From NCBI GenBank assembly GCA_965207445.1, contig CBDBLX010000002.1, positions 384,001 through 448,000 of the forward strand: a DNA stretch of 64,000 bases, given 5' to 3'. The first letter of the stretch is position 1. Each line of letters opens with the position of its first letter. Positions 13,245 to 63,329 of the stretch are shown piece after piece. The notes beneath the pieces were generated by a model. That model saw only the letters and a list, made by a program, of their open reading frames with translations. It was not told the origin of the DNA and did not search any database. The DNA comes from Nitrosopumilus sp. (GTDB taxonomy: Archaea > Thermoproteota > Nitrososphaeria > Nitrososphaerales > Nitrosopumilaceae). Position numbers and translations under genes: made by a program.

Positions 13245-13288
13245 AATACATCTGTACGTTTTTATAATATGTTGGGAATGACAGATGT

Positions 13289-15291
13289 ATGGTAATTTCA
13301 CTAATTAGGCAGTTGCGCGTCAAGCAGAGTTCTATTTTCTCTCAATCCTCCATCATCCCCCCTCCCCCCCCCCCCACATCCACAACCATTCTAACGCGCA
13401 ACGCCATATTTTTACAGCAATTTTACTTGCCGGAATTATTATCACACTAGTCGCAGCCGTTCCGGTGGCTGACTGGGCCGACGCTGCTCACAATACTAAT
13501 GTAATTCCGCCACCCCCGGCCGACCTCAACAGGGCGGCCGTCACGTTCAACTCGCCCTCGGGCGGTGGCACCCTGATAGGGACCGTGACGCTCGAGCGCA
13601 ATGCCGCCGAGCGGATGGAGTTCGCGGCCGAGATACGCGAGTGTGTGGTGGACCTGGGCAACGTCGGCAATATCCCACTCCGGTCGGCCAACATGTGCGG
13701 CAGCGACGCGCACGCCAGCCTGGACCCCAACGACACGGGGCGCGACTTTTCGCGCAACGTAATCTGGACGGACTCCACCAAGAGCACCATATCATACTAC
13801 TATATCCCGACATACAGGACGATAACCATAGAGAAGGGCCAACAGACCGCCGATGTCACGTGGCAGACGCACAACGACGGCACGTCGAACGCGCAGTCGT
13901 TTACTGTGGCGGTCCAGCCCCTCACCGGGGGCTCCGTGTACGGACACCACTGGGTGGATCCGTACAGGCCGTCGACAGGGACGTTCATGTCCCAGCACCA
14001 CTGGAAGGCTCAGATAAACGGCCCCCAGCCGGAGCTGATAATGGTGGCAGGCGGCCCCACCATCGTTACGGAGGGCACAGTACTGCGCGTATTGGTGTTC
14101 GCCACCCCATCGGCGAACCCGGAGCTTAGGTTCAACTACCACATATCCGACCCCCGTAGTGACACAAACCCCGACGGCTTTATTCCCAACACCGCTGAGG
14201 GCGACAAGCACAATAACATCGCCGCTCGATTCAACTTAATGGTCCCGACCGATAACGACAACACCGACGAGCGCGACGGCATCATCACGGTATCGCTACG
14301 CTCCGGCTCCGGCTACACCGTGGGCACGCCTAACACCGTCTCATTCACGGTGCGGGACAACGACCCAGGCCCGCTTGACGGCACCGGCAACAGTCCCCCG
14401 CCCCCGACTACAGTCTCAATTGGGCTGGCAGGCGGCGGCTCGGAGGGCGACCCCGTCTCATTCAGCATCGGCGCAACCCCCGCCCCTCTGCAGTCACCTT
14501 TGCCGGTCAACGTCACCCTTTCGGGCGCCGGCGGGATTCTGAACGCCTCCGACGCGGGCTGGCGCATCGTGGAGATTCCACCGATCGGCTCGTATACGCT
14601 GGAGGTCCCGACCATAGACGACGGCGTCATAGACGTCAACAATGTTACGCTCACGATAAACCCCGGAGCCGACTACACGCCGGGCCAATTTGCAAGCTGG
14701 ACTGTGGACGTCCAGGACGCCGGGACGACGTCAAGTCTGATGCAGCCGCCCGTGTACAACAAGCTCACCCAGGCGCAGAATCTGACGGCAGTCGCCATAG
14801 ACCCGGCGCTGGTCGCCAACGTGACCGCGATGGCCAACCAGACGCAGCACGGCGCAGATCACGTGGACAGATGGAACCGCGTTCTAGCTGCCTTTGGCGA
14901 GATTGACCACTCAAACCCGATGACCGCAGCAGAGGCGCAAACCAATGCAGAAAAGTACAGCAGCCCGCTGTGGTCGCAGATTGCAGACGTGCTGACATTA
15001 CTAGAGGCGGCAGCAGCAGAACAGGACGGGCCGCAGACGCCGCCGGACGTACCGACCGAGCCGGACGCGCCGCCCGCCGTCGACCCGGAACTCGTCTCCA
15101 AGGTAAGGGCGCAGGCGGCCCAGACGCAGCACGGCGACGCGCACGTGGACAGATGGAACCGCGTTCTAGCTGCCTTTGGCGAGATTGACCACTCAAACCC
15201 GATGACCGCAGCAGAGGCGCAAACCAATGCAGAAAAGTACAGCAGCCCGCTGTGGCCCCTGATAGCCGACGCGCTGGCGGCGCGCGAATAG
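13289..15291 (+). CDS. Secreted/surface protein with Calx-beta-like repeats and C-terminal HVDRWNRVLAAFG repeats; currently out of frame at a poly-C tract
   Basis: TATA at ~13259-13267 and ATG 13289; C6TC12 tract 13357-13375; signal peptide IFTAILLAGIIITLVAAVP is in frame with ORF 13465-15291; Calx-beta-like DGIITVSLRSGSGYTVGTPNTVSFTVRDND. Confidence 0.7.
14839..15255 (+). repeat. Two near-identical 135-bp coding repeats (14839-14973, 15121-15255)
   Basis: Both encode QTQHGxxHVDRWNRVLAAFGEIDHSNPMTAAEAQTNAEKYSSPLW. Confidence 0.95.
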
Positions 15292-15497
15292 CAGACATAC
15301 GCTCTTATGCAGCAGAGAAATACCACGGACAAGAAAACATTGACCGTTGGCACCGTGTACTAGAGGCCTTTGGAGTAGAATCCTTTGACAATCTAGAACC
15401 AACGACTGCAACAGAATCTCAGACATATGCTGACCGAGGATGGGGCCGTTGGATTCCAGTGGTAGTAGCACTTGAAAAGATAGCGTCCGTTGACTAG
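15288..15497 (+). pseudogene. Orphan third repeat unit, out of frame and AT-richer
   Basis: IADIRSYAAEKYHGQENIDRWHRVLEAFG...TATESQTYADRGWGRW is homologous to the preceding repeats. Confidence 0.75.
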
Positions 15498-16434
15498 ATA
15501 ACAGTAATGATAACCGTAATGATCACAGTTCAATACTATTACATTTTTTGGTAACACGCCGCGTTTTTGAAGTGACTTTGATGGTCACATGGTGTACTTG
15601 GAGGCACGCATGAATGGGGGCTAAAGACAAGGGACGGAGGGTGTACGTTGACATTAGGTGCGGGTTGTAAGTTATGGCGACGAGCACAAGTCATACACAT
15701 CAATTTTACACGATTTTATGCCTGAAAAGATCATATGTAAAAATATTGTATTTTGAAAACGTTACATCTGTTTTTAATATGAATAGAAATGTTTCAGATG
15801 TGCATTGTAATAAGTGCAGTATGCCCAAAGGTGTAATGCGTCCAATTGTCAGATTGGAAGGTGAACTGAGTTCTAAAGCAAAGGAATACAACATGATCAT
15901 CTCGATAACAGCAACAACATCAGCAACAACATCCGCATCCGCAACAACAACAAAAAAAAGAAAAAGATAAACTAGCAGTATGAAATTACATTATCACCCA
16001 TGTACATCTTCTCTCAACATGGTTATCACTATGTATAAGCACACATCATAGATATCCATATCAATCTTGAATTTTATTCCATTCTATGGTGTATGATTGG
16101 GCATATTGCAACATACTGCCATAATTTTGAACATAAAAATAATCATATTATGATTTCCTGTAATGTTTTTACAATTGGACTTTGCCACATGTGATTATTT
16201 CAGGCACAAAATCACAAAAATCCACTGCACAGAAACTTATGCCTATCATTATACGTGCAACAGGGCAATGGATGCCGTCAACTCATCTCTAAATTCATAT
16301 ATGGATTCACCGTCTATTATCTGGCGCAGACACAGGGGTTGAATAGTTGCAGCAATAAAGTGTTTATCTTTACAAGGCCCCATTGGTAAAGTGTAGATTA
16401 AAAAATTAGATTGACAAATTATTATGCAACACAT

Positions 16435-47943: not shown

Positions 47944-48017
47944 GGGTCTATGGCGCAGCCAGGTAGCGCACAGGACTCTTAATCCTGCTGTCGTGGGTTC
48001 GAATCCCTCTAGACCCG
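47944..48017 (+). tRNA. tRNA-Lys(CTT)
   Basis: Acceptor GGGTCTA/TAGACCC, D arm GCGC/GCGC, anticodon arm CAGGA-CTCTTAA-TCCTG, T loop TTCGAAT; no intron, CCA not encoded. Confidence 0.97.
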
Positions 48018-48573
48018 CTAATTTATCTATTCATATAGAATTAGTGATTGGATTGTGCCACATACAACAAACATGTATGTATTCGTATGGGGTGAATGGA
48101 GGTTGGTGTGTAATTCATCAAATCGCCACCTGCATCGTGCTTGCAGTCATCTGGAAATATCGCCAGAGTTTTATATGTATAAATTAAATTATTCAATAAT
48201 CTCATAGAAGGGTCACAGGCAGGCTAATGTCAATTACGCACCAATCTCGCATATCTACACTGCATAATGGCACATTGTATAGGTTAAACACAAATATGGA
48301 GATATGTGTATGTACTCACAAAATGCCAAGGCGTCTCCCACACCATGTTTTGCGCGTACACTTTGTAGGCTTGGAAGCACGGCCTGCTTATGGCTTGTTG
48401 TAGGCGTGACTTGACACCCCCCGCTGGCATCATATCTTGAGGCAGACAGTCTTCCTGTCCAGTTTACAGAACATTTGAGTGGCTTTGAATCGTGTAACGT
48501 AGGTTGCGCGGCTCAGACCACATGGCCACGACCCCAGAGGAGTATAAATTTACGAGTTATGCAACACGCTAGA
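48002..48573 (+). repeat. ~570-bp direct repeat, copy 1 (begins inside the tRNA 3' end)
   Basis: Matches 52837-53407 with about a dozen substitutions and one indel. Confidence 0.95.
48098..48248. mobile_element. ~150-bp MITE derived from the family B IS (second copy ~52933-53083)
   Basis: Left and right ends of 59480-61175 joined together. Confidence 0.85.
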
Positions 48574-48834: not shown

Positions 48835-49464
48835 TTAGAGGGCCGATGCCACTTTCATCAGATCTGACAATGTATAGGCAGTCGAGATCAGTTCTATTTG
48901 GATCCTGCCGTCATGGAAGATCAGTTTTGATGTCATTCCGTGTTCGGGATCCCCGTCCACGCCAATGGCGTCAAAACCGTTTACCACTACACTCTGTGTG
49001 TAAGGCCGTTCCTTCAGGAAGTCTACGCGCCACTTTTCAATGTTGAAGCCATCGCGCTCTTTGTCATACAATATGATGATCCCGTGAGAGTCCATCACGT
49101 CTGCAAATGTCTCGAGTTTGTTGTAGTCTATGGATTCCGGCCCGTAGATCACCGCTGCCAGACTGGCCCTTTCTGATCCCGTTCCCCTGGTCATCAACGC
49201 CTTGACTTCCAGACCGGCTGGAAGCAGTGTGGATTCCGTTACCTTGTAACCCGCCTTTACGGACAGTGCCTCGACGTTTGGATATGCATCCCCGTAGTTT
49301 CCCAGCTTGTAGGAGTACGGCATCTTGGCGGCTGCAAGCGACTCGGAATACTTTCCAAGATACGGCAAGTCTTGCGTTTGCTGCGAGTCCTGCATCCAAA
49401 CAAGCCCGATGCCAGCAATCCCGACTGAGACTACCAGCGCCGCAATCGTGGCTTTTTTCAGCAA
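48835..49464 (-). CDS. Cassette 1 partner: single-TM protein with DUF4367-like extracellular domain
   Basis: TTG start overlaps the upstream stop; LLPAGLEV, VVVNGFDA and LSDLMKVASAL patterns. Confidence 0.7.
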   Translation of the reverse strand: MLKKATIAALVVSVGIAGIGLVWMQDSQQTQDLPYLGKYSESLAAAKMPYSYKLGNYGDAYPNVEALSVKAGYKVTESTLLPAGLEVKALMTRGTGSERASLAAVIYGPESIDYNKLETFADVMDSHGIIILYDKERDGFNIEKWRVDFLKERPYTQSVVVNGFDAIGVDGDPEHGMTSKLIFHDGRIQIELISTAYTLSDLMKVASAL

Positions 49465-50183
49465 GTCTCTGACCCTCCTATACCGACCTTGATGTTCTTG
49501 TAGGCGGGCGTGCACTGGGTTATGAACGCGTCGTTTTCTTCGTGTTCGATATCGTTGTCCGTCCAGTAGCTCCACCTAGAACCGTCATGCCACTGTATGT
49601 ATCTCACGTCTGTTTTGGGGACCGACGTATCATCGTCCTTGGATTCTACTCCAGTGATTACGTTCCCATAGTCATAGCTCATGATTAGGCCGGCGCGTCG
49701 GGCACCGTCTGCATATGCCAGCCACTTTTCGTCCTTGTTTGTGTCTGATATCTCGTAGTATATGTTGTCAGACGGGCTGACAGAACCGGTCAATCTGTAT
49801 TCATAATAGCGCCCATCTTGCTGATATGCCAGATAGTGAAATTCATCTGAGTTGTGACATGTTCCGTTTACGTTGCCCGATACGACTCCGATTTCTATCC
49901 ACTCGTCGTTGGGAAAGACAACCCAAGTAGCTACCAGTGAGAACCCTACACCGTTTGGCGAGCATGAATCTGATACTGTTATGTCGGGAACAGTCACTCT
50001 TGCTTTGACGCCTGATATCGGAGATGAGTCCGTACTGTGGAGTTCTTGGGTTCCAATGCAGTGTGCTTCCCACCACCCACTCGTGCAGTCTTCAGTAGAA
50101 GCCGAGCTGGCCGAAGGGATCAATGCCACCCCCAACAGGATTGGAAGCACAGTCAAGATTGTTTTGGTATGTTTTGCAATCAT
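49458..50183 (-). CDS. Cassette 1 secreted protein, neprosin-like (putative glutamic peptidase)
   Basis: Signal peptide; SGVKARVTV, EWIEIG and TGVES motifs; six Cys. Confidence 0.6.
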   Translation of the reverse strand: MIAKHTKTILTVLPILLGVALIPSASSASTEDCTSGWWEAHCIGTQELHSTDSSPISGVKARVTVPDITVSDSCSPNGVGFSLVATWVVFPNDEWIEIGVVSGNVNGTCHNSDEFHYLAYQQDGRYYEYRLTGSVSPSDNIYYEISDTNKDEKWLAYADGARRAGLIMSYDYGNVITGVESKDDDTSVPKTDVRYIQWHDGSRWSYWTDNDIEHEENDAFITQCTPAYKNIKVGIGGSETC

Positions 50184-50204
50184 TATGTACACTTGCACCC
50201 TACG

Positions 50205-50243
50205 TTATATAAGGCGGCATATCCAAATATGGAGTGCCTTTTG
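50205..50243 (-). promoter_or_regulatory. Shared cassette promoter 1
   Basis: CAAAAGGCACTCC-N18-TTATATAA. Confidence 0.8.
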
Positions 50244-50683
50244 GCCGCGGATTCAGGCATGCAATACGGCAGCCACGGTATGTACTGGCAACTGGGCCGG
50301 GGCCGTACGGCACTGATCTGTCGATAGCTTTCATATGACATGGTAGGATCTATCCCGCTTCTTCCAACACTTTTTCCAGAGAAGAGATACTGGCATACGG
50401 AACGTGTTGAAAATGACTAGATTCTGTAGCTTTTCTGTCCGGTGGGCCTCGGAATGGTCGGACACTAGATCACCAGCAACAGCAATAGCAACAATAGGTT
50501 CATGGCAGCCATCAGAAACGGTATCACGGGAGCAGCTACTATTACCAGCCGTCCTGCCTTTGCGCCTATCTTCCACACGGGGGCACCGGCGGCCGGACTG
50601 TGGGCGATCCAAACTGGATGGCGGTAAACGTGCAAAGATAACAAAGATTTCTTTGTCACCTTTGTACTTGCCAAACCCGCGGC

Positions 50684-50722
50684 CAAAAGGCATTCCAGAT
50701 CAGGATAGGCCTCATTATATAA
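50684..50722 (+). promoter_or_regulatory. Shared cassette promoter 2
   Basis: CAAAAGGCATTCC-N18-TTATATAA. Confidence 0.8.
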
Positions 50723-50743
50723 TGCAAAGTGTGAGGGTGTACA

Positions 50744-51765
50744 ATGAATGCAAAACGAGCAAAGACATCTTGTTTGCTTCCTTGATCGTCGCAGTGGTTA
50801 TTCCACTTTCAACGATGGGCGCAGTGGATGCAAAACAGTCTGAAGACAAAATACCTGACGATAAACTGATCCCAAGAGATCCTGCAAAATGGGTTTTACA
50901 ATACGAGAATAAGCAGAAATTTGATGGGTATGAAAACGCTATCAAGATATACGTCGAATCTGCACAAAAAGACAACAAGTGGAATCAGGTAATGGCCAAA
51001 GAACACATACGATTGCACAACCTAGACACCAAAGTAGGCGAGATCGGCGCGGGACTACAAGCAGTGTTGGTGGACGTTGAGCATCAACAGAACCTAGGAG
51101 TATATGATCCTACCGAGGCTGAGAGAAGATACCACCAATGGGCTTTCGAACTATACCCAAACCCAACAATGCACCCAGAGATCAAGAATGTCTGGCTAGA
51201 ACAGATAGTAAAGTCACACAACAGCATAGCAAATCATGGAAACGTGCCGTCTGAACTCTCATTACGAGACCCCGAGTTTTGGATAATGACTGCAAATGAA
51301 TCAATGTGTCAATACGTTGATTGCACACAAGATATTCCAGACTCAGATCCAATCACGAATTTTGTACAAAAATACATAATTCCAAACGCACATGCATACA
51401 AAGTCAACACGTGGCACATTATGAATGGCTACATCTACACACACAGTTGTGAGGGCCAAACCGGAGGATGTATGTTCACTTTGGATACAAAAAGCGGCGT
51501 AGGCACACTGAGTTCTAGCAAGACAACTGCAAGATCTTACGATTCTGACGCAATAGTATATGCCTCAAACTGTTCACCATACTACACTACAGCGCACAAC
51601 ACACTCGATGGTGACTTGACAAGCGGTGTGCAGGAATGGTCATGGAACGACAGCAGCGATACAAGTTGCGCGGTAATATATGAGATACAAGAGATAGCGC
51701 AAAACCCACATGCGTCATTTTTTGCGACTTGGACTATTGAATCAGAGACTACTATAGAAAATTGA
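50744..51765 (+). CDS. Cassette 2 secreted precursor (family X); probable 1-nt deletion near codon 8
   Basis: Signal peptide ILFASLIVAVVIPLSTMGAVDA; homologous to 57754-59046; internal IIPNAHA. Confidence 0.7.
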
Positions 51766-52331
51766 ACCTCTCTCCCACTCTTTTTGTTGTTACCAAGAAA
51801 TATGAGTTATTGCCACTTGGCATGTTTGTCTTTGCGGTTTTGTTTTTAATAAGTTACAACACACTTGACACGTACTTTACAGTCACCGTTCCACTGCAAC
51901 ATGCAGTCCAGCTGGATTATGTCGGAGAGTACCACTATGATCCGACGGACGACCCGCAGTCAGACATTGGTACGGTCACTCACGTAAAGGCGATAGGTGA
52001 AGATTACATAGAGGTTCAGTTTACAGATAATGATTTTTTTGTAGGTTCGTATAGAATACCGGAATTTGTACATACCGAAACCATAAGAAAGGGAGACGTG
52101 TTCGTAGAGACATGCCTAAACTTTGATTCCGGTGTGAGTCTGGGGCTTTTGACGTATATGGGCGTCGAAGAATATGACGGAAAAGATCACTACAAGTTCT
52201 TTCGTACGAGCGCAGACACGGACAAGGAGCTACAATGCAAATATCCTCAAGTCATCATAGAAAGCCTGAAGATTGACTTGGACATTACAATACCACAAGG
52301 CAAGATCCTCACTATCGTACTTGAAGAGTAG
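51762..52331 (+). CDS. Cassette 2 partner: single-TM protein with a two-Cys extracellular domain
   Basis: 4-nt overlap with the upstream stop; N-terminal TM helix. Confidence 0.75.
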   Translation: MNLSPTLFVVTKKYELLPLGMFVFAVLFLISYNTLDTYFTVTVPLQHAVQLDYVGEYHYDPTDDPQSDIGTVTHVKAIGEDYIEVQFTDNDFFVGSYRIPEFVHTETIRKGDVFVETCLNFDSGVSLGLLTYMGVEEYDGKDHYKFFRTSADTDKELQCKYPQVIIESLKIDLDITIPQGKILTIVLEE

Positions 52332-52836
52332 AAAGATTTTTCCAGTGCGCTGGAATGTATCCTACAAATTCTAGCTGGAAATTAGTGACAATCTAGTGTC
52401 AACGACGTATAATTCTGGGTTTTCACTTTGGCGTTCCTAGTTCTCCATACCTAGATTCTCACTCTATCGCACCTGTTTCTCAGGTGTGCCTAGAATACCG
52501 TAGATCATTCTGCAGTGGAAACGGCAGCACGGCGGCAGCAGACCGCGGCGGCTATCCTCAAAGAATCATAGAGCTTGTTGATTCTTTCCGGATATTATAT
52601 AGTCGGTGGTGGTGTGGGGCGTACCTGCATAGCAGACTGCTTGTTTTCAGTTTGAACGCTGCCGGCAACAACTGCCCTCCGCGCACTGTGTCCTCAATCC
52701 TGCTAGTTTGTCCTGCCTAACCACAACCGGTTCTGCCCGTTCCAGATTCCATATTCTTATTAGCTGGGTATTTGCTACCATATCACATGCAGGGTTCGAA
52801 TCCCCTAAAATCAGGACACTCCTGTTCTAGCTGGCT

Positions 52837-53407
52837 AATCCCTCTAGATTCGCTAATTTATCTATTCATATAGAATTAGTGATTGGATTGTGCCACATAC
52901 AACAAACATGTATGTATTCGTATGAGGTGAATGGAGGTTGGTGCGTAATTCATCAAATCGCCACCTGCATCGTGCTTGCAGTCATCTGGAAATATCGCCA
53001 GAGTTTTATATATATAAATTAAATTATTCAATAATCTCATAGAAGGGTCACAGGCAGGCTAATGTCAATTACGCACCAATCTCGCATATCTACACTGCAT
53101 AATGGCACATTGTATAGGTTAAACACAAATATGGAGATACGTGTATGTACTCACAAAATGCCAAGGCGTCTCCCACGCCATGTTTTGCGCGTACACTTTG
53201 TAGGCTTGGAAGCACGGCTTGCTTATGGCTTGTTGTAGGCGTGACTTGACACACCCGCTGGCATCATATCTTGAGGCAGACAGTCTTCTTGTCCAGTTTA
53301 CAGAACATTTGAGTGGCTTTGAATCGTGTAACGTAGGTTGCGCGGCTCAGACCACATGGCCATGACCCCAGAGGAGTATAAATTTACGAATTATGCAACA
53401 CGCTAGA
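52837..53407 (+). repeat. ~570-bp direct repeat, copy 2 (attR-like tRNA 3' fragment)
   Basis: Starts aatccctctagattcgcta, versus tRNA aatccctctagacccgcta. Confidence 0.95.
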
Positions 53408-53408
53408 A

Positions 53409-53592
53409 AATTGCGCAACGATTCATAAAGACAAGAATGATGCGTCCAGAATTGCGCAACGATTCATAAAGACAAGAATGATGCGTCGTTATTATAGTCA
53501 CTGCCGTCCATGCGAACGGCAGCGCGTATTTTGCCTATCGTTGTTTAGAACGATAGCGCGCATTTGGAACTGCCGTCCATGCGAACGGCAGT
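53409..53592. repeat. Iteron-like block: two 38-bp direct repeats plus three spaced palindromes
   Basis: Direct repeats at 53409-53446 and 53450-53487; CTGCCGT-N8-ACGGCAG twice, flanking CTATCGT-N8-ACGATAG. Confidence 0.85.
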
Positions 53593-53716
53593 GTGTATAA
53601 TACCTTATGCACCCCGGAGTCTCAATTTAAGCATTCTGATCCGCAGTCCGGTGTAGGTGCGCACCCACCACGTCCCGTCTTTTCGGCTACGCGGCGCACG
53701 TCTTGTAAGCGACATG

Positions 53717-53990
53717 CTATTCCGCCATCTTGTAGAGCCCGTTCGCGTTGCTCATCACGGGGTCGCCCGGGACTACCACCTTGAACTCCTTTAGCTTGGC
53801 GGCCAGCCTCTCCTGCATGCCGGGGATCAGCAATACCTCTCTCGAGAGCGCTACTGCATACCGGTTGCCGTACTGCCCGGACACGTCGTGTATCTCGCGG
53901 GCCAGGTTATCGGCCATTATCTTTGCGTACCTGTGGCACACGTCGTGGTTCCTGTGGAGCAGGTCCGTGTCGAGGTGGGCGTACCTGCCT
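53717..53990 (-). pseudogene. C-terminal remnant of an actin-like (ParM/StbA/MreB-type) ATPase
   Basis: AVALS(REV)LLIPGM...VVVPGDPVMSNANGLYKMA matches the adenosine and connect-2 regions; GC-rich and 5'-truncated. Confidence 0.6.
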
Positions 53991-54217
53991 ATCTTTCTAT
54001 ATAAACACTGATTAACTGTGTTTTCAAGAGAACATCCTTGCAGTCTTTAATAAATAATAAGAAAGTGCCATCAAGACTCAATTGCATTGATGGCTCTACG
54101 TATAATGGCTTTAATATCTGGGTCTGATATCTCAGCCTCACATTGACGTAACCCCGTTGTATCGTACATATAATACAAAATATGCCCACTTTTTTAAACA
54201 TTACTAAAACCCTATGT

Positions 54218-54505
54218 ATGGATGAAGGTTTAATGAACTCTGTAAAATATGCATATAAAGAAGTTCTCAGTAATTTAGAAATAGCTAACATAGATCTAAT
54301 GAATGCAGAATCTGATAAACTTGGTGCAGAACAGACATTAGACAAGGCAAAAGATAACTATCATAACGCCGAAGTTGAACTTGAGCAGGCAAAAACAACC
54401 CTTGAATCATGTAAAACCCGTGTTAATGAATTAACAGAATGTAGTGATAATTTACGTATAGTAATTGACAATTTACGTATAGTAATTGACAATAATAATA
54501 ACTAA
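54218..54505 (+). CDS. Small coiled-coil hypothetical protein
   Basis: Heptad pattern; 21-bp tandem duplication (DNLRIVI twice). Confidence 0.55.
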   Translation: MDEGLMNSVKYAYKEVLSNLEIANIDLMNAESDKLGAEQTLDKAKDNYHNAEVELEQAKTTLESCKTRVNELTECSDNLRIVIDNLRIVIDNNNN

Positions 54506-54680
54506 TCCATTTTTTTGAGATTACATAGGTATTCCAGACAACCTACGCACTCTTTGACATTGAGGGCACATGCACATATCAAAATATTGTGATGGATTCC
54601 ATGGGTAATGAATTATCAAGCGATTAATACCAAGCTACCATAAAGTAACGGCATGATTTACAACTCATCTTTACATTGCA

Positions 54681-54789
54681 TACTGATACGATTAAAGATC
54701 CGATATTTTGATTGATATTCATCTCAAAGTTGAGCACATATTATGAATACAAAATATTAGAAAACTATCGGATCTTTAATGAAACTATT
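54681..54789 (+). mobile_element. 109-bp MITE family A, copy 4
   Basis: Flanks ttgca/atgca. Confidence 0.9.
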
Positions 54790-54944
54790 ATGCACATACT
54801 GACAACGGTCCGTATGCCGGGAGCAGGACTGCTCAACGTTCTTGTGCCCGCGTTCATTCCTGCCTGGATGCAGCAGGTCGGATAAAACAGATGCGGTAGC
54901 AGGCGGGGTCCCAGTTACTATATACGAAGCCCCATATACCATGA

Positions 54945-55145
54945 TCAGTCAACGCTGCAGTTAGGCATAGAGTGTAGTTTTGGACTTGACAATCCCCGAT
55001 GAACGGGATCAAACCCCATGATGCACATGTATAAATCCGAAAACGGATCCTGCGGGTTCCTATATGCGTACATGGGTATTATCACAACCAGTACGATCAA
55101 GAGGCCGACTACAATTACACTAATCCTGAAAAACAACTTGTCCAT
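54945..55145 (-). CDS. Cassette 3 partner: 66-aa single-TM protein with two Cys
   Basis: TM helix ISVIVVGLLIVLVVIIPMY; directly downstream of the protease. Confidence 0.6.
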   Translation of the reverse strand: MDKLFFRISVIVVGLLIVLVVIIPMYAYRNPQDPFSDLYMCIMGFDPVHRGLSSPKLHSMPNCSVD

Positions 55146-55197
55146 GCTCGGTCACCATATTATTTGTATATATAAGAAAAGAGTGTCTGTTGCAGAT

Positions 55198-56457
55198 TTA
55201 GTTTAAGACTGCTGTTATGTCCATTTCGTCGGCTATGTTGTCATACGCGGCGTGATAGACGCCCCACAAGTCGTGCGTGGTGAGTATCCAGTACAGGTTT
55301 CCTTTGTCTCCACTTGCAACTATTGGTCCGCCGCTGTCACCGTGTTTAAAAGCCACGTTGGATCTTACAAGATCCCGCATGATCTCTCCATCAAGAAGAT
55401 TCAGTACCGTAACGTGTAGCGCGGAGATTGTCCCAAAGGTTACGCCACTGGCCTGTCCTGACTTCATTATCGTGTCGTTTTGCTGTTGGGCCTGAGATGT
55501 CGTGTTTGTGACCCTGTGGAGTCCGCCGCCGTACACCATGTCGTTTGTTGTATTTGAACTGCTGGTGACTATCCACGCGCAATCACAATAGGTTCCGCGA
55601 TAATATTTTTCCACAGACACGGTGCCTATGTTGCTTCCTCGAGCATTGCGTACGTCTTCTCCCACTTGACTTTCTGCGCAGTGGCCCGCGGTTATCCAAC
55701 CCCATGTTGTGCCTTTTTTGGCCTTAAAGCCAAAACTGCATCTTTCTACATCCCTCTTGGGATCCGCGCTGTCTATCTCGATGTAGTTCCCGCCTATTAT
55801 CGGCGCGCATATTCGTTGCGTGCACGATGCCGTTTCCGCCGGGGTGGAGTATACCGCGTGCCAGGGAGCACCCGGTGGCATCATATCCTCGAGATCACTT
55901 ACAATGTACCTGATGTTGGTGGAATTTACCGTGGCGTTGTTCAGCCACACCTGGATTTCTTGACTGTCGATGTCTATCCTGATGCTGGTGACAAACCAAA
56001 GCGTTGTGGAGTTGAACAGTCTGAGTTCGAATGCATCCTGCTGCGCAATCAGTTGCGAAAGCCCCTCTTCTGGGATGTCTCGTTCGTGGTTTTTCTCCTC
56101 TATTGCCCTGATTTCAGACTCTATCTCACTTACGCGCGTATGATTTGTCTGATCTCCTGCGTCAGCCCCATGGGAACTGCCCAGTTTTTCTGCTTCCCTG
56201 TACAGTTTCCCAAGCCTCTCTGATATTTTTGCGCGTTCCAGCTTCTCCCGCATTCGCTCTTCAGTCTTGTCTCTGGGATGCGTCTCGTCTATGTCCCGAT
56301 CCGTGATCTTTTCTGCGTCCGGGTGCAAAAGTTCATCTAGCAGCGTTGCCGCATCCTCTTCTCCCGCGGCGTCTTCAATAATGCCTGCCGCTACAAGTGA
56401 CGCCAAGGTGACGTCCACCGGCAGCGCGACTGTGATTGTTTCTGGTTTGGCTTGCAT
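55198..56457 (-). CDS. Cassette 3 secreted S1 (chymotrypsin-like) serine protease with long prodomain
   Basis: Triad motifs ITAGHC, CDCAW, GDSGGP. Confidence 0.88.
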   Translation of the reverse strand: MQAKPETITVALPVDVTLASLVAAGIIEDAAGEEDAATLLDELLHPDAEKITDRDIDETHPRDKTEERMREKLERAKISERLGKLYREAEKLGSSHGADAGDQTNHTRVSEIESEIRAIEEKNHERDIPEEGLSQLIAQQDAFELRLFNSTTLWFVTSIRIDIDSQEIQVWLNNATVNSTNIRYIVSDLEDMMPPGAPWHAVYSTPAETASCTQRICAPIIGGNYIEIDSADPKRDVERCSFGFKAKKGTTWGWITAGHCAESQVGEDVRNARGSNIGTVSVEKYYRGTYCDCAWIVTSSSNTTNDMVYGGGLHRVTNTTSQAQQQNDTIMKSGQASGVTFGTISALHVTVLNLLDGEIMRDLVRSNVAFKHGDSGGPIVASGDKGNLYWILTTHDLWGVYHAAYDNIADEMDITAVLN

Positions 56458-56484
56458 GTTATTACTATGGGTCCGTAGCTTTTG

Positions 56485-56523
56485 TTATATTGCGATTGAT
56501 TCTGATTTGCGGTATGTCTTTTG
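56485..56523 (-). promoter_or_regulatory. Shared cassette promoter 3
   Basis: CAAAAGACATACC-N18-CAATATAA. Confidence 0.72.
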
Positions 56524-56794
56524 TGATTTCGGGTTCGAAACATCGAACCCCATCACTACTTTTTATGTGAGCTTTTTAGGGAGTTACTCCAAATGCCTAA
56601 TTTTTAATTAATTAGTCTCTGAGTGAGAGCAGCTTGGCTGAGGGTTGCTTTTTGAACAACTGTAATTTGATACGTCCTCTATATGCCAGATCGTATGAGG
56701 TCTGTTTTTTTTTGGAGATGCGTTGTTTTTGTGGCAATGAATTTGTTTCGGTGCCAGTGGGTTCTTGTACAAACACGTCGACATAGTTGGCGCG

Positions 56795-57283
56795 CTAATC
56801 CAGCAGGCATGTGTCATACCCATAAAGATCAGACAGATTGGTAGACTGAATGTCTGGTTTGGGATATCGATCTGGAGCAGAAAGACATGAAATTGTTCTG
56901 TAAACAAAGCCCTCTTTATGCTGCAGATCCAGCTCGAGGCGATTGCCATGTATGTCATGCTGGGATACAGTCAGCACGGTGGATCCGTCAATTGCCACTC
57001 TAAATTCGTCAGTAGAGTTTGGGTACATTGATTTGAATTTTTTGTAAACGGGGCTCTTTTGCAGTTCAGTGTATCCTTTAATCTCCGGGGATTCGTCAAG
57101 CATTGCGTTCTTAACTGCAAAATACAGCGTCTTCATCCTGTCACCCGCACTCGTCCCGGGTATCTGGTTTGGCAGCGATTCAAGGTATGTGACTGCAAGT
57201 GTTGTTATTATTATGGCCGCCGCACCCATACACAAAAGCACGGTCCTTGACCGGATAGGGAAGACATGCGCGGCGCTCAACAT
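56795..57283 (-). CDS. Cassette 4 partner B (paralog of partner A)
   Basis: TM helix, then ESLPNQ, YFAVK, PVYKKFKSMYP, GYDTCL. Confidence 0.8.
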   Translation of the reverse strand: MLSAAHVFPIRSRTVLLCMGAAAIIITTLAVTYLESLPNQIPGTSAGDRMKTLYFAVKNAMLDESPEIKGYTELQKSPVYKKFKSMYPNSTDEFRVAIDGSTVLTVSQHDIHGNRLELDLQHKEGFVYRTISCLSAPDRYPKPDIQSTNLSDLYGYDTCLLD

Positions 57284-57757
57284 TCAGTCCTCTAGACACT
57301 CATTATAACCAATAAAATCAAATGCCGCCTCAAATGGAACCCCTGTGGGGTGAGGCAGGGTATTGTTAGTCGTGCAGTGTACCGCATAAACAAACGGAGG
57401 ACGATTGTCATCTTTCATCATCTCCAAGGTAATGTGGTTGCCGCGGCCGTCGTACTCTGTTACGCGCAGTATCGGGGTGCCGCTTACTGTAGTTTCGAAT
57501 TCCTCAGTAGAGTCGGGGTACGCCGACTTGAACTCTGTATAGATCGGGTGGCTTGTGAATGCGTTGTACTGTTGTATGCCCTCGTGCTCTTCGAATGCGG
57601 ATTTTTTGATTGCAAAATATGCGTTTTGGAATCTGCCACTCATATCTGTGCCTGTCGTTTGGTTTGGTATTGATTCAAAGTACGTAAATCCAATTATCAC
57701 TACGGCGCCCACACATGTGAATGTTACTAACCTCTTGGTAGAAAAAAAGGGATTCAT
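57284..57757 (-). CDS. Cassette 4 partner A: single-TM protein
   Basis: ATGA overlap with the precursor stop; ESIPNQ, YFAIK, PIYTEFKSAYP, GYNECL. Confidence 0.8.
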   Translation of the reverse strand: MNPFFSTKRLVTFTCVGAVVIIGFTYFESIPNQTTGTDMSGRFQNAYFAIKKSAFEEHEGIQQYNAFTSHPIYTEFKSAYPDSTEEFETTVSGTPILRVTEYDGRGNHITLEMMKDDNRPPFVYAVHCTTNNTLPHPTGVPFEAAFDFIGYNECLED

Positions 57758-59046
57758 GGTATCCACGAATTTGTAATTCCGCGCAGATACCACACATAGT
57801 GGGGATCGTCTCTGTCACTTGCTTGTACTGTCGTATCGACCTTTGCACATCCGTTACCCGATGCGGTAAAATACACCGGCTGAGACGTGGTTTGAAATTT
57901 GGCTACTGCGCTGTTGTATGCGTGTGCACTGGAGCATGTCATTACATAGATGCGCATGTCGTTGCTCGTTCCGTGACCGGCGCCTGCGGCACCTTCGAGG
58001 TCCGGCGGAGTGGCAAGTACGTTATGTTCTCCCACGCTCCAAGGCTCGTCTTCTTGAACTTTGCATGTGCCGTACGTGCACGTGTAAGGCTCACCGTAGA
58101 CTATGGTATAGTGATAAGTCTCACTCCATGCAAATGCTTTTGGCAAAAGGATTGACAACCAATCAGATGCTACGTCCGGGGGCTGGATGGAATCTTTTTT
58201 GTACGACTCTGTATCCAAGATCTCTTGAAGGGATGTGACATTGCATCCCTGGCTGTACCCGCACGAGGAGATGCTCGCTACGAGAATCCAGTAGTCAGAA
58301 TCGTGCTCAAGCAACTCATCGGGCACGTTTCCGTGAAGCGCAAGCATGTTAAACACGCCTGCCAAATCGGGTGCAAACCCGATAAAGTCGGGTTCTGATA
58401 TGATCTCAGTGAGCCTCTGATCAATCTCTTCTACTGAGTCAGGGGCCGGGTATTTTTCAGCCAGCCAGCCGTGAAACCTCTTGACAGGCTCTGTGTGGTT
58501 GTACTGATCCAGCAGTTTTTGCTTTGCAGCAACTAGTGATGTAATTTCATGCCCAAATCCCGTCTTTTCGATTATCGTGTCAAAGTTGTGAATCTTTGTG
58601 TATGCCAAGACCATTGCTTTGTTCCAACCGTTATCGGGCATTTCTGCTATTGTGTATGTCATTAGAGCGAGCATCATCTCTCTGAATTCTCGCGGGCTTG
58701 AAAACTGGGTTTCCCATTTCTCTCCATATCGTTCGATCAGCTTGTCGTCGTAAATGTCTCCTTCATTCAGCGTAGTTTGCCTCAGATCCGACAGGTCTTG
58801 TTGGTATTTTGCCAAGACGGCTGCATTTTGAGCGGCCTGCGGCGGATCTTCTTCCTGAGTCTTTGTTTTATTGTCTTTGTCTTGTACGTCTGCAACAGTT
58901 TCTTTGTCCACGGTGGCGTTTCTCACATCTGCAATGGAAGCATCATCATCTCCAAATGACGCACCCCTCATGCCAGCTAAAAGCACGATTGCTGTCGACA
59001 GTGCCGCAATCAATATTGTTTTTGTTTGATATGTTTTTTTACGCAT
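57754..59046 (-). CDS. Cassette 4 secreted precursor (family X)
   Basis: Signal peptide; DDKLI, DNGWN, HNFDT, HGNVPDEL; internal LLPKAFA; four-Cys C-terminal domain. Confidence 0.82.
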   Translation of the reverse strand: MRKKTYQTKTILIAALSTAIVLLAGMRGASFGDDDASIADVRNATVDKETVADVQDKDNKTKTQEEDPPQAAQNAAVLAKYQQDLSDLRQTTLNEGDIYDDKLIERYGEKWETQFSSPREFREMMLALMTYTIAEMPDNGWNKAMVLAYTKIHNFDTIIEKTGFGHEITSLVAAKQKLLDQYNHTEPVKRFHGWLAEKYPAPDSVEEIDQRLTEIISEPDFIGFAPDLAGVFNMLALHGNVPDELLEHDSDYWILVASISSCGYSQGCNVTSLQEILDTESYKKDSIQPPDVASDWLSILLPKAFAWSETYHYTIVYGEPYTCTYGTCKVQEDEPWSVGEHNVLATPPDLEGAAGAGHGTSNDMRIYVMTCSSAHAYNSAVAKFQTTSQPVYFTASGNGCAKVDTTVQASDRDDPHYVWYLRGITNSWIP

Positions 59047-59073
59047 ATTATTACTGCGGTGTAGGTACGTTTG

Positions 59074-59112
59074 TTATATAACAACTATGATGGGGTTACG
59101 GTATGCCTTTTG
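59074..59112 (-). promoter_or_regulatory. Shared cassette promoter 4
   Basis: CAAAAGGCATACC-N18-TTATATAA. Confidence 0.8.
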
Positions 59113-59479
59113 CGAATGACTCGGCGACAATGAAACGCGCGTCTTCATATAGCCTAAACCCGCAGAGGAGAATTTAAAAAATGTCTGATTATTTCCGGAT
59201 ATTCTTATGATCGTGCTTTGGCGCTCTTATAATCGAATAACTGGGCATTCCACACCGTTGCGGCGTGATGGCCTCACAAGGGCCGCGGACATGTTGCATG
59301 TCGCAGGCAACGGAACCGATCCGGCACGGGACGGGCATAAACTTGGGAACGCGGTGCGCAGTCCAGCGCGCCGCGGCTACATCTGCGCAGGCGCAGATAT
59401 TTGACATATATGGAGGCCGCGTCACAAATCCTCGTTGGAATATGATCCACAGACATACGGCAACCTGATGGCCTACAAG

Positions 59480-61175
59480 GGAGGTTGGTGCGTAATTCAT
59501 CAAATCGCCACCTACATCGTACTTGCAAAATCATCTACAAATATCGCCAGAGTTTTATATGTATAAATTAAATTAATTAATAAACTCATATATAAAAATA
59601 TCTGCGCGCATATCAAAAGTTACTTATAGGGACATCTCAATTGAATAATTGTGATACGAACAAAGGGGATGTTAAACAGCGTCGACTAGCCAATGTTATC
59701 AACGTATCGTTTGTAAAGTGTGGTGGAATGACGACATATGTGGGGTAGGTTGCCACAACATACTATGCTACACAGAGAATGACGCCCATTATAATGCATG
59801 GCTTGTGATGAATGTGGCGTCTGTTTATTGTTTGTGTAAATTTAGTGTGTGGGTTTCAAATAAGAATAGATTATGGAGGCAGACAGTACAGTGACAGAGT
59901 AGCAGCACAAGCGACACGAAGGTTATTGGCTGTATTACGAACAGACATGCAAATTTGAGCAGGGTTTTATGCGCAAGACATGGATGTCGGCGATACGAAA
60001 AAATTCACATCCGTACAAGGAAAAGAAGACAAATAGAGGAGGATGCGAGCCTGTACACTTGCGTGGCAAGATGGATTTTTTGTGCCTTTAAAAAGTTGCA
60101 AAAAATATTCCTTTTCGTGACGTGATAAATGATCTTGGACATATGCAGGATGAGCAAGTTGACGAGCCGGAGCCTGATTAGTTGGGTAACAAAACATGTG
60201 CAAACAATTGATCTCGACTGGTTTGATTCTATTTTGGCATATGCTGCCAATATGTGTCTAAATAAACTTGAAAAATCAGGGACAAATCCGGTACCGATAA
60301 AAGGTAAAGAGTTCATATTTACGCACGGATCCGAGGATTTTGAGGGCGGTAAACAAGACGTAAAAAAAGAACCTACAGGTACGATTGGGATAGACAGTAG
60401 TGTCGGGGGCAGAAAGACTGACAGATACGAAAAACAACAAAGACCAAATCATTTACTACACGACTTAACTGACACGCATCAAGACGTACCTAAAATATCA
60501 TATTATTTGATAAGCGGACACCAGATCATACTTGCATCATACACAACTCCACGCAATGCAAGTGTCACATCAATGCTTCCATATGTGGTCAACTTTCTCG
60601 TAAAAACTATACACAGATTGAAAAACGCTTATTCAACGGAGACAAGAGATACATTCGGATCAAAACTGTGAGACAATATTTGATGCAAACATGAAACCGA
60701 ACATAAAACAGCGCAATCATACAGCAGGTCATACAAACCGTGGTAAACCACCAAGCAGAAAAAAGGTAGCAGAAATCTTTGACAAAGATGCATACAAACA
60801 ACGCGCATTTATCGAGGCAATTTGGAGCAGTAGAAGAGACAAAGAATCACAGGCTACACTGTCGTATGCGCCTGGCCAAAAACAGAAAGCGGTTTGGTAA
60901 AATACTATCGATTGCATGGAATATCAACGTCCTGAACAGATTTATCTGCGCTCATAAAAAAGGGCAAAAGATTCCATCATACAAATTAGTGACTGCTATC
61001 ACACTTACACGTTTCATGTTCTATAACCTGTCTGCCAAAACAACACACATGTATATTCAAAAACAAAACACACTATAGATAGATTTCAGTCTTTTGTAGA
61101 TTAAATGTGCAATAAACCGAATAAGTTCACAGACGGGTCACAGGCAGTCCAAATGTCAATTACGCACCAACCTCC
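59480..61175 (+). mobile_element. Family B insertion sequence (IS5/IS4-like DDE) with degraded transposase
   Basis: 18-bp TIR GGAGGTTGGTGCGTAATT; IGIDSS, GDKRY and YKQRAFIEAI motifs spread over several frames with stops. Confidence 0.85.
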
Positions 61176-61213
61176 CTGCTCGCTCGTTGACTACACACGT
61201 GCCTCAATTTGAG

Positions 61214-61459
61214 TTATACATCTCTTACAACCTCGCGTTTAGCTAACTGCTCCCACGCACCAATGTTGTCTTCGCAGTTGTACGATTTGTATTTTTGAAG
61301 AGTTTCGCGAGTATTCTCACCCTCAATTGCCAAATCGATCATTTCATCATATGTTTCGGCGCAAATTGATAATGTTTCTGTATATGCTTGATTGAATATT
61401 AACAATGCACTAAGAATAATTATGCCTGCGATTATTGAAACTATGAAAGGAGTCTTCAT
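61214..61459 (-). CDS. Cassette 5 partner: 81-aa single-TM/signal protein with two Cys
   Basis: MKTPFIVSIIAGIIILSALLIF; downstream of the protease. Confidence 0.65.
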   Translation of the reverse strand: MKTPFIVSIIAGIIILSALLIFNQAYTETLSICAETYDEMIDLAIEGENTRETLQKYKSYNCEDNIGAWEQLAKREVVRDV

Positions 61460-61707
61460 AATACCACAACTGATAAGCCATGTATAGTTAGGACATGCCT
61501 AGTGGGGACTACGTCGTACTCGCATGATGTCGATCCCAGGTAGTTTGATAGGCGTTGTACAAGCATACTTGATCCAATTGCGGCACACCTCATATGCAGA
61601 CGCCTCAGACGTGGAACCTGCAAACCGTGCCTGCCTCTGGACGTGAGCCCGAGGTGGGAACTAGGTGTATATTCCATGAGTAAAAATGAATTAGGGAGCA
61701 AACTCAT
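61456..61707 (-). CDS. Doubtful ORF linking the protease and its partner
   Basis: ATGA overlaps at both ends, but atypical amino-acid composition. Confidence 0.25.
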   Translation of the reverse strand: MSLLPNSFLLMEYTPSSHLGLTSRGRHGLQVPRLRRLHMRCAAIGSSMLVQRLSNYLGSTSCEYDVVPTRHVLTIHGLSVVVL

Positions 61708-62904
61708 CTCAATGGTCCCAAGCCGGTTGTTGAATCATTGATATTTTCCCAAGGTGTGTAGTAGCTTGCAGATGAGGATGTTGTCTTGTTCATTCCATGG
61801 AAATTGTCTTCTGCCGAATTCGTAACGGCGCCTCCACTGTCGCCACGGTCCATTACATCAGTAGTGGTGGAAACTACATCGAACCAAATTCCATCGATGT
61901 AGACTCTACTTTCTGGATCGTCTACTATGCCATAATCAAGATTACTCGTCGCTCCGTGGATGACTATGTTAGCTCCGGCAGCTGAGCGATCAGTAAAGCC
62001 GGTTATCGTTGTCCAATCATTAGTGTTACTCCATACCGCCCGTTCGCTGTCATCCTCACTGCTTTGCTCCACCCAGGCGCAGTCGCATTCTGCTTGGTAC
62101 AAGTCAATTTCTACGTCTCCAACCTTGTTCCACCCTAGCCAGTCCTCGGTTGGCTGGAAAACATCGTCGCCGGAACCACTGGCGTCATCCACACAATGGC
62201 CGGCAGTGATGAATCCATCAACGCCGTTACGTTCCATAGGCAGTCCTATGGTACAGTACGAATGATTTTTGGACTCCATCTTAATTCCGCCAATGAGGGG
62301 GGTTACAGTTGGAATTAGGATGGGTGCAAGACGCATCAACTATAGTGTCGAACTTTACCTGTACTGATAGATCCGCATATCTGCGCTCAATTATGTCTGT
62401 GTAATATGTCTCATTTTTTTCGACAGTAATTTGACTTGCGTCAACAGTAACTACCAAGGCGTGATGAAGGCCGCTAACAGATACACCGATTAATGGCAAA
62501 TTGGATCCCACCACATCGTCTTGTGCGACACGTAGCTTTTGTTCTAATGCAGATTCAATTTTGTACCTTTCTATTCTTTCCTGTTCCATTTGATCTAGAA
62601 TGTTTTCATAATTTACAACGTCCTGTTTTAATTTTTCAATCTTTGATTGCAATTTAGCAATTTCTGCTGACGTTCTATTGCCGTCACTAATCATCGATTG
62701 GAGTTGTTTTTGGAATTCCTTCAATTCGCTCTTTGCAAATGAATATGGCTCCATCACTTCCCTCAACTTTTGAACTTTTGCTAATGCCTTGTTATCGTCT
62801 TGATCGGGTACTGCGCTAATTTGCGTTATGGAAACTGAGAGGATTATTGCAGATGACGATACTACAACCAATGCAATTTGTGTCGTTTTTGAAGTATTTT
62901 TCAT
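61704..62904 (-). pseudogene. Cassette 5 secreted S1 serine protease, frameshifted at a G6 run (62297-62302)
   Basis: Signal and coiled-coil prodomain in one frame; PLIGG, ITAGHC, CDCAW and GDSGG in the next; removing one base fuses them. Confidence 0.85.
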
Positions 62905-62933
62905 GCTGTTGCCACTACATGTGCGCCCCCGTG

Positions 62934-62968
62934 TTATATAAGCACGTATATTAAAATCTGGAGTGCCT
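62934..62968 (-). promoter_or_regulatory. Shared cassette promoter 5, interrupted by a MITE
   Basis: AGGCACTCC-N18-TTATATAA; CCAAAAAGGCA continues on the far side of the MITE. Confidence 0.75.
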
Positions 62969-63077
62969 AATAATTTCATTAAAGATCAGATAGTTTTCTA
63001 ATATTTTGTATTCATAATATGTGCTCAACTTCGAGATGAATATCAATCAAAATATCGGATCTTTAATCATATCAGTA
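62969..63077 (-). mobile_element. 109-bp MITE family A, copy 5
   Basis: Perfect 5-bp TSD tgcct. Confidence 0.92.
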
Positions 63078-63329
63078 TGCCTTTTTGGAAGATAGGATCC
63101 AGATCCGCGACTCGGAGGCATAGGAGTGACCCGACAGGCAGCAAGCGGAGTCGCTGTGACGTAATGCGTAGCAGACGCATTTGGAGACGCGCCGCAGCCT
63201 CCACATGACAAATCTCGCGCGCGGACGGACGCGCCGTGCCCCCATCGAGGCCAGCGTCGACAAATAACCAACGGGAGGATGACCACTGCGGCGACAATAT
63301 TTTGGCCTGCGAGCACCTGCCGCCCTCAA

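Follow-up and report, generated by a model that had tools for sequence, protein, structure and literature searches.

Predicted secreted effectors paired with predicted membrane-anchored partners in a tRNA-Lys island of Nitrosopumilus sp.: candidate cassettes of an antagonism system

Which function is served by secreted proteins that are each accompanied by a small membrane protein was asked for an island behind a tRNA-Lys gene of Nitrosopumilus sp. (assembly GCA_965207445.1, contig CBDBLX010000002.1; source genome 2.6 Mb in two contigs). The window, i.e. the whole stretch of 64,000 nucleotides (nt) that was analysed, corresponds to G000:C2:384001-448000, and positions are those of the window unless a contig label (C1, C2) precedes them. 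From the letters alone, an original prediction had described five units of effector plus partner and had read them as a secreted antagonism or host-interaction system with cognate immunity or inhibitor proteins. Linkage of effector and partner, decay of effectors with retention of partners and arrays of orphan partners were found to speak for this reading, whereas strict cognate pairing did not hold within one effector family, termed family X. About an even chance of being correct is given to an explanation by secreted antagonism, in which the partners serve as immunity or inhibitor proteins at the cell surface.

All five units were recovered and are referred to as cassettes 1–5 (c1–c5), with the following genes (lengths in amino acids, aa):

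48835..49464, minus strand: cassette 1 partner, N-terminal membrane helix and DUF4367-like domain, 209 aa, TTG start
49458..50183, minus strand: cassette 1 effector, signal peptide and neprosin/G1-like glutamic peptidase domain, intact
50744..51765, plus strand: cassette 2 effector, family X with helical pro-domain, IIPNAHA motif and 122-aa beta-sandwich, frameshifted
51762..52331, plus strand: cassette 2 partner (family P-A), membrane helix and beta domain with cysteine pair, start codon uncertain
54945..55145, minus strand: cassette 3 partner, 66 aa, one membrane helix, without the C-terminal motif of its relatives
55198..56457, minus strand: cassette 3 effector, S1 protease of the alpha-lytic/streptogrisin type, long pro-region, all three catalytic motifs (His, Asp, Ser) intact
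56795..57283, minus strand: cassette 4 partner 2, 33% identical to partner 1 and abutting it
57284..57757, minus strand: cassette 4 partner 1, membrane helix and domain of ~120 aa
57754..59046, minus strand: cassette 4 effector, intact family X protein of 430 aa with ILLPKAFA motif
61214..61459, minus strand: cassette 5 partner, 81 aa with a single membrane helix and two cysteines
61704..62904, minus strand: cassette 5 effector, S1 protease preceded by signal peptide and pro-region, interrupted by a frameshift in the run at 62297-62302

The start/stop overlaps claimed for cassettes 1, 2 and 4 are present at the junctions: the TTG start of the cassette 1 partner at 49464 lies 7 nt within the effector end, and effector and partner share TTGA at 51762-51765 in cassette 2 and ATGA at 57754-57757 in cassette 4. 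Gaps of 52 nt and 244 nt separate the genes of cassettes 3 and 5, respectively; an 83-aa frame at 61456-61707, consisting of unique DNA without any match, was not counted as a gene. All six partners open with a hydrophobic helix. As had been proposed, homologous effectors carry unrelated partners, with no partner-partner match between cassettes 2 and 4 or between cassettes 3 and 5. Effector 3 is atypical in having no clear hydrophobic signal stretch, and the KTIL-type start is exact in effectors 1 and 4 but occurs in variant forms in effectors 2, 3 and 5. Neither family X nor any partner of the window was matched by Pfam or NCBIfam models. For the cassette 1 partner, the top Atlas clusters were named DUF4367 (0.93-0.94) and a PF14285 cluster scored 0.91; hmmscan gave no PF14285 match. 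Fold searches with the cassette 2 partner yielded no clear structural relative (best Z 5.1).

Overlooked in the original prediction were the frameshifts in effectors 2 and 5, as well as the insertion sequences (IS) and the duplicated tRNA end that break up the array. In effector 2, the ATG linked to the promoter (50744) does not share the reading frame of the gene and meets a stop after 13 codons; its relatives P0004, P0005 and P0007 are whole proteins of 343 residues. Assembly error was rejected as the cause. Both frameshifts are taken to be real because contigs of sequencing runs X1-X3 cross the breaks without gaps, a technical kind of support as these runs represent one sample and maybe the assembly source; in addition, P0003, from another assembly and 98% identical, has the same broken start as effector 2.

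Three cassettes of the window share a promoter of 41 nt with the consensus CAAAAGGCACTCCAGAT-N8-ACCTCCTTATATAACG, which ends in a TATA-like box. Matrix matches were located as follows:

50203..50243, minus strand: 41-nt promoter of cassette 1
50684..50724, plus strand: 41-nt promoter of cassette 2
62932..62972, minus strand: 41-nt promoter of cassette 5

Degenerate versions precede effectors 3 and 4. The matrix was built on 16 pattern matches and used with a score threshold of at least 16, at which 19 places were obtained in the genome, equivalent to 18 distinct sites, as contig C1 carries a second copy of one; when a single strand of C2 was shuffled, no match reached 16 (best 9.5). At 17 of the 18 sites an M-x-A-K-x-T-K-T-type start, or a broken version of it, follows 20-29 nt downstream. 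The genes so placed comprise family X, neprosin-like and S1 effectors, two M10 matrixin-like proteins (one above the Pfam cut-off) and three unknown families, and the shared promoter suggests co-regulation by one transcription factor. Elsewhere, the promoter was found in genomes G103 (five sites) and G054 (two) and, in G073 and G092, ahead of genes for family X or S1 proteins; the pattern had no match in G009 or G216. Taken together, 17 cassettes were counted genome-wide: the five of the window, nine at other promoter sites and three recognised by homology (C2 201k, 206k and 219k).

The M10 matrixin-like proteases at G000:C2 233900-235350 (L091) and 601200-602900 (L090) are broken, stand behind the shared promoter and are followed by an intact anchored protein. 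These partners look OB-fold/TIMP-like by eye alone, and Pfam and PDB sequence searches gave no support. Four further secreted families under the promoter lie at G000:C2 2209004, 44724, 2379538 and 1743952 (L085-L087, L089). At three of these four loci proteins of 90-107 residues with two to three membrane helices come next, a typical bacteriocin-immunity look, and the effector at 2379538 shows the same kind of out-of-frame start as cassette 2.

Effector 1 has its Atlas look-alikes in neprosin (0.91) and peptidase A4 (0.91) clusters. Glu98 and Glu181, invariant in 20/20 aligned sequences, may be equivalent to the neprosin/G1 glutamate dyad (~80-110 residues apart). No Pfam match to PF03080 or PF01828 was obtained for this protein, PDB sequence searches with profiles of effector 1 and of the cassette 4 partner family found nothing, and a genome-collection scan with effector 1 gave no relative. 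In effectors 3 and 5 the S1 motifs (TAGHC, Asp, GDSGG) are all intact, and the nearest solved proteins for effector 3 are alpha-lytic protease (E 2.5e-12) and streptogrisin B (E 7e-12). Conserved single-copy housekeeping genes these effectors are not: family X has eight matches within this genome, and among 250 other genomes of the family Nitrosopumilaceae it is present in 17, the neprosin-like effector in 8 and the S1 type in 10 (12 loci).

The family X figure refers to strong matches (E < 1e-20; 18/251 genomes with this one included); 26 genomes had matched and 8 were dropped as weak (E > 1e-20, mostly the signal peptide alone). A first draw of same-genus genomes had given 2/24, and 270 proteins belong to the family among 50% representatives. 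The structure model (pLDDT 79) predicts an N-terminal domain made of helices, followed by a beta-sandwich that starts at residue 227. Between the two lies a P-x-A-x-A motif, IIPNAHA in cassette 2 and ILLPKAFA in cassette 4, whose strict pattern was found 102-148 residues from the C-terminus in 32/57 long homologues; since it resembles a signal-peptide terminus, a second cleavage is proposed at this point. C-terminal domains are divergent yet homologous among members, a C-terminal cysteine pair is invariant (28/28 aligned proteins), and similarity in pro-domain and mature domain co-varies (r 0.72). Structure searches with the model gave no hit at Z >= 8, and Foldseek none at E 0.001. Ranks 1-4 were a phage needle protein (Z 6.9), SIDT1 (5.8), lactococcin 972 (5.7) and formosin D (5.6). 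Lactococcin 972 aligned over 65/66 residues at a root-mean-square deviation of 2.2 and 5-6% identity to model residues 231-344, directly after the motif, a weak resemblance that is treated as a lead rather than an assignment. For halocin C8, no Pfam/NCBIfam model matched the effectors of cassettes 2 or 4.

The helical domain of family X also stands alone or is membrane-anchored at its C-terminus (P0070, P0128, L010, L029, L031), and helical plus beta domain form the tip of Ig/PKD proteins of 1500-1750 residues. Family X or neprosin-like N-terminal tips on very long Ig/PKD/fn3 repeat proteins were seen in P0132, P0135, P0138 and P0149 and at L100, L101, L165, L172, L179 and L180, the neprosin-like ones with the partner gene upstream; such proteins could be contact-dependent versions. 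P0151 appears to be a single-protein fusion of a partner domain (206k type) with the helical domain of family X.

Linkage of effector and partner recurs in other genomes and is real. It extends to cassettes 1, 3, 4 and 5 and, at family level, to cassette 2, though not to every family X locus. All eight neprosin-like loci adjoin an anchored or secreted gene (five downstream, three upstream), and six match the cassette 1 partner by search. Both S1 loci closest to cassette 3 (63% and 50% identical) carry its partner family, although the match to the partner at L142 is weak directly (E 0.03) and relies on a bridge via L140 (8e-14). Likewise, the S1 locus closest to cassette 5 (60%) has the cassette 5 partner family (E 3e-11; cross matches 0.03 or worse), and the closest relative of effector 4 (57%) is paired with a cassette 4-type partner (45%). 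The 28 family X loci outside this genome have a P-A partner (12), a member of the cassette 4 family (2), another gene (6) or none (8, one of them at a contig end); four of the eight loci from one search duplicated loci already counted. Partner type thus agrees well with effector type among the proteases and near relatives, but poorly within family X as a whole. All linkage figures are counts and not tests, related genomes not being independent.

Within this genome, 10/17 partnered effectors are frameshifted or deleted, as compared with 0/18 partners and 1/48 conserved single-copy genes. The chance of zero lesions in the partners at their 32% share of codons is 0.022; to be noted with this count, the cassette 3 partner is without the C-terminal motif of its family and the start of the cassette 2 partner is uncertain. 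Intact partners beside broken effectors were also observed in G081, G173 and G054 and twice in G103. The partner families are more widely spread than the effectors, with P-A in 37, the cassette 4 family in 27 and the cassette 1 family in 23 of 250 genomes. Using the best locus per genome, own genome included, and searching for the cognate effector within 0.9 kb, P-A (n=30) was beside family X at 7 loci, in tandem arrays at 8 and alone at 15; the cassette 4 family (n=29) was beside an effector at 3, in arrays at 9 and alone at 17; the cassette 1 family (n=30) was beside an effector at 13, in arrays at 3 and alone at 14. Most of these best loci have no cognate effector within that distance.

The arrays are tandem runs of anchored genes with M-K-T starts and a shared AGAAA-ATG junction, and 56 MK[T] starts were counted in ten 20-kb loci. 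Relatives of the cassette 3 partner occur in them and, by eye, relatives of two partners from other cassettes as well as a serpin-like gene. Some array members belong to partner families, and none to a named immunity family.

Long runs of this kind were noted at L075-L084 (e.g. L076, L077, L081), L066, L115, L122-L128, L135 and L166-L176. Their genes start with M-K-T(R/K)-L-L-I-I or M-K-T-L-H and have a GGAG...AGAAA-ATGAAAACTAG junction at which neighbours overlap by 4 nt; the last residues of the gene before it are frequently KRK or ENEN, which is an off-frame reading of the junction. Several runs are present per genome and gene order varies, so that they look like a cassette-shuffling system in their own right. 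At L124 (188-1504) and L126 (41-1471) a serpin-like gene and a protein with an apparent protease pro-domain end were seen by eye inside such arrays.

The setting of the cassettes in the window is defined by the following features:

47944..48018, plus strand: tRNA-Lys(CTT), left edge of the island
48002..48573, no strand assigned: 572-nt direct repeat copy 1, tRNA 3' end and multi-copy repeat DNA
52837..53407, no strand assigned: 572-nt direct repeat copy 2, opening with a copy of the tRNA 3' end (27/29 nt)
54678..54795, no strand assigned: 118-nt repeat resembling a miniature inverted-repeat transposable element (MITE), 65 genome matches of at least 100 nt, inverted copy at 62963-63080
59477..61177, no strand assigned: broken 1.7-kb IS, 20-nt terminal inverted repeats, 21 genome matches of at least 1000 nt

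In 5/5 same-genus genomes examined, the gene upstream of the tRNA-Lys is kept and the DNA downstream differs, hence the site is a variable insertion site; G+C content is 45% behind the tRNA as against 39% across 14001-47900. The copies of the 572-nt direct repeat are 97.7% identical and enclose cassettes 1 and 2. The broken IS, which we take to be IS5-like from its DDE motifs, encloses cassette 5 together with its inverted copy (from 63639), and MITE-like repeats lie between units. Five units are indeed present as the described array, but since the 572-nt repeat, the broken IS and the MITEs separate them and cassette 2 is in opposite orientation, the island is a mosaic and not one operon. No integrase was evident within it. 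Integron- or shufflon-type cassette sites were rejected, as the repeated GGAGGTTGGTGCGTAATT motif is the IS end with 59 genome matches and is not cassette-specific. An inversion suggested by an opposite-strand joint (54795/62960) in read contigs was likewise rejected, the 118-nt repeat at the cut end of the query explaining the joint.

Between cassettes 2 and 3, two frames are single-copy in the genome: a 107-residue coiled-coil frame with a 21-nt tandem repeat (54182-54505, plus strand) and a 74-residue frame (53717-53941, minus strand); reads over 53700-54000 include related DNA of other organisms. Just past the window, after the inverted IS, an 814-codon frame with a signal-like stretch and Gly-rich repeats was found (G000:C2 449668-452112), and the island apparently extends to ~C2 452900. 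Outside the island, G+C content rises to 55-57% at 13001-16000 (~39% in the flanks). The 121-kb contig C1 duplicates part of C2 (tRNA-Gln, tRNA-Gly and the 44724 cassette), which may explain the contamination figure of 5.5%.

Islands with several cassettes recur in G103 (four units; four promoters in 6 kb, two broken effectors), in G092 (three) and at L195 (four). Short pieces of cassettes 1-4 were present at 97-100% identity and a depth of 2-3 in run X5, which comes from a different study and is a sponge metagenome; this hints at an association with sponges. Family X was also found in a record titled groundwater metagenome-assembled genome (MAG) and in one titled IBTHAUMO2, presumably a sponge symbiont, and is not limited to hosts.

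How such cassettes might work as an antagonism system can be outlined. Mobile cassettes, mostly behind one shared promoter, would encode a secreted precursor and an adjacent partner predicted to be membrane-anchored. After Sec export the precursor would be processed outside the cell to a protease or bacteriocin-like domain; family X would be cut after P-x-A-x-A at a second signal-peptidase-like site, freeing a disulfide beta-sandwich of 110-150 residues, and its helical pro-domain may have a holding or self-immunity role. The mature effector would attack the envelope of neighbours, most likely related ammonia-oxidising archaea in a crowded habitat, e.g. sponge tissue, and the outward-facing partner would neutralise it at the producer surface. 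We propose that a partner is kept after loss of its effector because neighbours still produce the weapon. A bias of decay towards effectors and the spread of orphan partners are expected of an immunity role, and an activator or anchor role predicts neither. Loose pairing and missing partners in family X would be understandable if the pro-domain protects the producer itself, comparable to HalI, to which self-protection is ascribed for halocin C8 in the portion of the source cited here (10.64898/2026.07.27.741052). A more far-reaching version is put forward tentatively, its chances being clearly below even. In it, a family-wide extracellular arms race runs through Nitrosopumilaceae; the weapons are interchangeable secreted proteases and a new family of archaeocins, all in one regulon tied together by the promoter, and anchored immunity proteins counter them. 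The archaeocins would combine a helical pro-domain for self-immunity, a second cut by signal peptidase and a warhead like lactococcin 972, and the M-K-T-start arrays of ammonia oxidisers that have no effector would be polyimmunity loci of archaea in which such shields are collected.

Several observations weigh against antagonism with immunity. Partners are missing at the eight outside family X loci given above, at three intact family X copies in this genome and at 5/12 S1 loci, four more of which have other partner kinds. The predicted co-variation of effector and partner was absent between the family X mature domain and P-A (Mantel r 0.07, p 0.30, 11 pairs; r -0.18 without near kin); family X proteins 61-63% (L013/L015 versus L014) or 68% (L012 versus L042) identical have unrelated partners, a cassette 4-like effector at L195 is paired with P-A, and at L013 and L015 the cassette 3 partner domain also follows family X. 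A bias attaches to the decay count, since partners had been recognised as intact reading frames. As to the bacteriocin likeness, the lactococcin match is below Z 8 and on par with unrelated folds, and the Pfam bacteriocin/lactococcin 972 models match 0/28 family X members in a search whose filters discard most matches above E 0.1. That giant Ig/PKD proteins begin with family X or neprosin-like domains would suit adhesion, and the M-K-T arrays are also rich in large surface proteins without known effector link.

Part of this evidence would fit surface enzymes with accessory modules, in which the partner anchors, folds or activates its effector in the pseudo-periplasm (S-layer or matrix remodelling, adhesion, virus escape) and the arrays are a store of variable surface proteins. 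Interchangeable family X partners, including a DsbA-like oxidoreductase at L042, the fusion of effector domains to Ig/PKD stalks and arrays full of unrelated anchored proteins all favour it; so does DUF4367 on a GerS/SsdC-type protein, GerS being an enzyme activator according to the cited part of 10.1101/2025.01.13.632879, a further point against an immunity role. However, partners are intact in 10/10 cassettes with broken effectors and effector-less in most genomes, where an activator or anchor would be useless, and this explanation is judged unlikely, if still a serious one. Improbable to a higher degree is a host-directed or nutritional secretome of an animal symbiont, whose proteases digest host matrix or defence proteins and whose partners are self-protecting inhibitors, a role that has been proposed for the subtilisin-serpin pairs of ammonia oxidisers from sponges. 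The IS-rich 2.6-Mb genome and the near-identical pieces of four cassettes in sponge metagenome X5 agree with it, as do exported S08A proteases adjoining serpins in a sponge symbiont, as given in the cited section of Moeller et al. (PMC6790972). Yet family X occurs in the groundwater record, the partner families reach their highest frequency in small genomes of low G+C that lack the effector, most effectors here are broken, and strain-specific diversity is more in keeping with conflict between microbes than with digestion. Precursor processing, high sequence diversity and membrane partners could also belong to secreted signal/receptor pairs for kin recognition, with the processed domain as ligand and the partner as sensor; three of the five effectors are proteases, though, and partners with few residues before the membrane helix have no evident cytoplasmic output, so this is considered very improbable.

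Compared with known systems, the polymorphic-toxin layout claimed in the original prediction applies in part: a secreted protein has an adjacent partner in 5/5 units, but in family X no swapping of unrelated toxin domains onto a constant N-terminus is seen. A looser analogue of such swapping is the promoter and signal start common to unrelated effectors. Polymorphic toxins, in the passages of Zhang et al. 2012 (PMC3482391) used here, likewise have a secreted protein followed by a small partner, strain-variable loci and toxin-free partner arrays; in the present cassettes no toxin domain is recognised, family X has one homologous C-terminal fold and partners are predicted to face outward. According to the same passages, extended polyimmunity loci are recorded in only four bacterial groups (PMC3482391), and the tandem, tightly coupled, strain-varying genes of partner families without toxins found here match their description. 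Halocin C8/ProC8, in the cited portion of 10.64898/2026.07.27.741052, is also a precursor from archaea whose cleavage yields an N-terminal part and a C-terminal one with cysteines; the stand-alone and anchored forms of the family X pro-domain are a further likeness. In contrast to it, family X has Sec-type (by eye) instead of twin-arginine signals, a beta-sandwich mature domain of 110-150 residues and an extra partner gene. Lactococcin 972 is exported by a signal peptide, has downstream membrane immunity genes and targets lipid II, which is absent from archaea. Its beta-sandwich (PDB 2lgn; formosin D, 9hkj) is aligned over almost the entire bacteriocin, whereas the family X domain is larger, has a long pro-domain and shares 5-6% identity at Z < 6.

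Staphopain-staphostatin and serralysin-Inh are operons of a protease with its cognate inhibitor. Such operons, including the S08A-serpin clusters of sponge ammonia oxidisers in the cited section of PMC6790972, resemble the cassettes in having a protease gene beside a small partner that tracks its subtype, and differ in that S1E, neprosin-like and M10 enzymes, no known inhibitor class and one promoter across unrelated enzymes are found here. ABP systems of Gram-positive bacteria, as far as described in the consulted text of PMC13460014, share diffusible secreted precursors, serine proteases and proteolytic maturation, but ABP immunity is cytoplasmic and the protease serves the toxin, whereas here each protease has its own promoter and partner and partners have a hydrophobic helix. 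VARTIG modules of Thermococcales, in the excerpt of PMC8416519 referred to, are archaeal hypervariable secreted proteins with subfamily-linked membrane proteins next to them, no classical toxin domain and Ig-stalk forms; the present cassettes consist of other families, are dispersed two-gene units under one promoter and include proteases. Literature searches returned no paper on these families, the promoter or the arrays, with overlap possible with Makarova et al. 2019 (mBio, archaeal toxins/archaeocins) or its tables. The cassettes are built from uncharacterised families on a known layout.

Ammonia-oxidising archaea are among the most abundant marine microbes and are usually pictured as passive autotrophs. 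The cassettes supply named, clonable effector-partner pairs with which to ask whether these archaea fight each other or their neighbours, and they are candidates for new protease-inhibitor and archaeocin families. A function is also suggested for the large arrays of unknown membrane proteins in the variable genome regions of ammonia oxidisers. If the antagonism reading is true, protein-based warfare would take place in an abundant microbial group.

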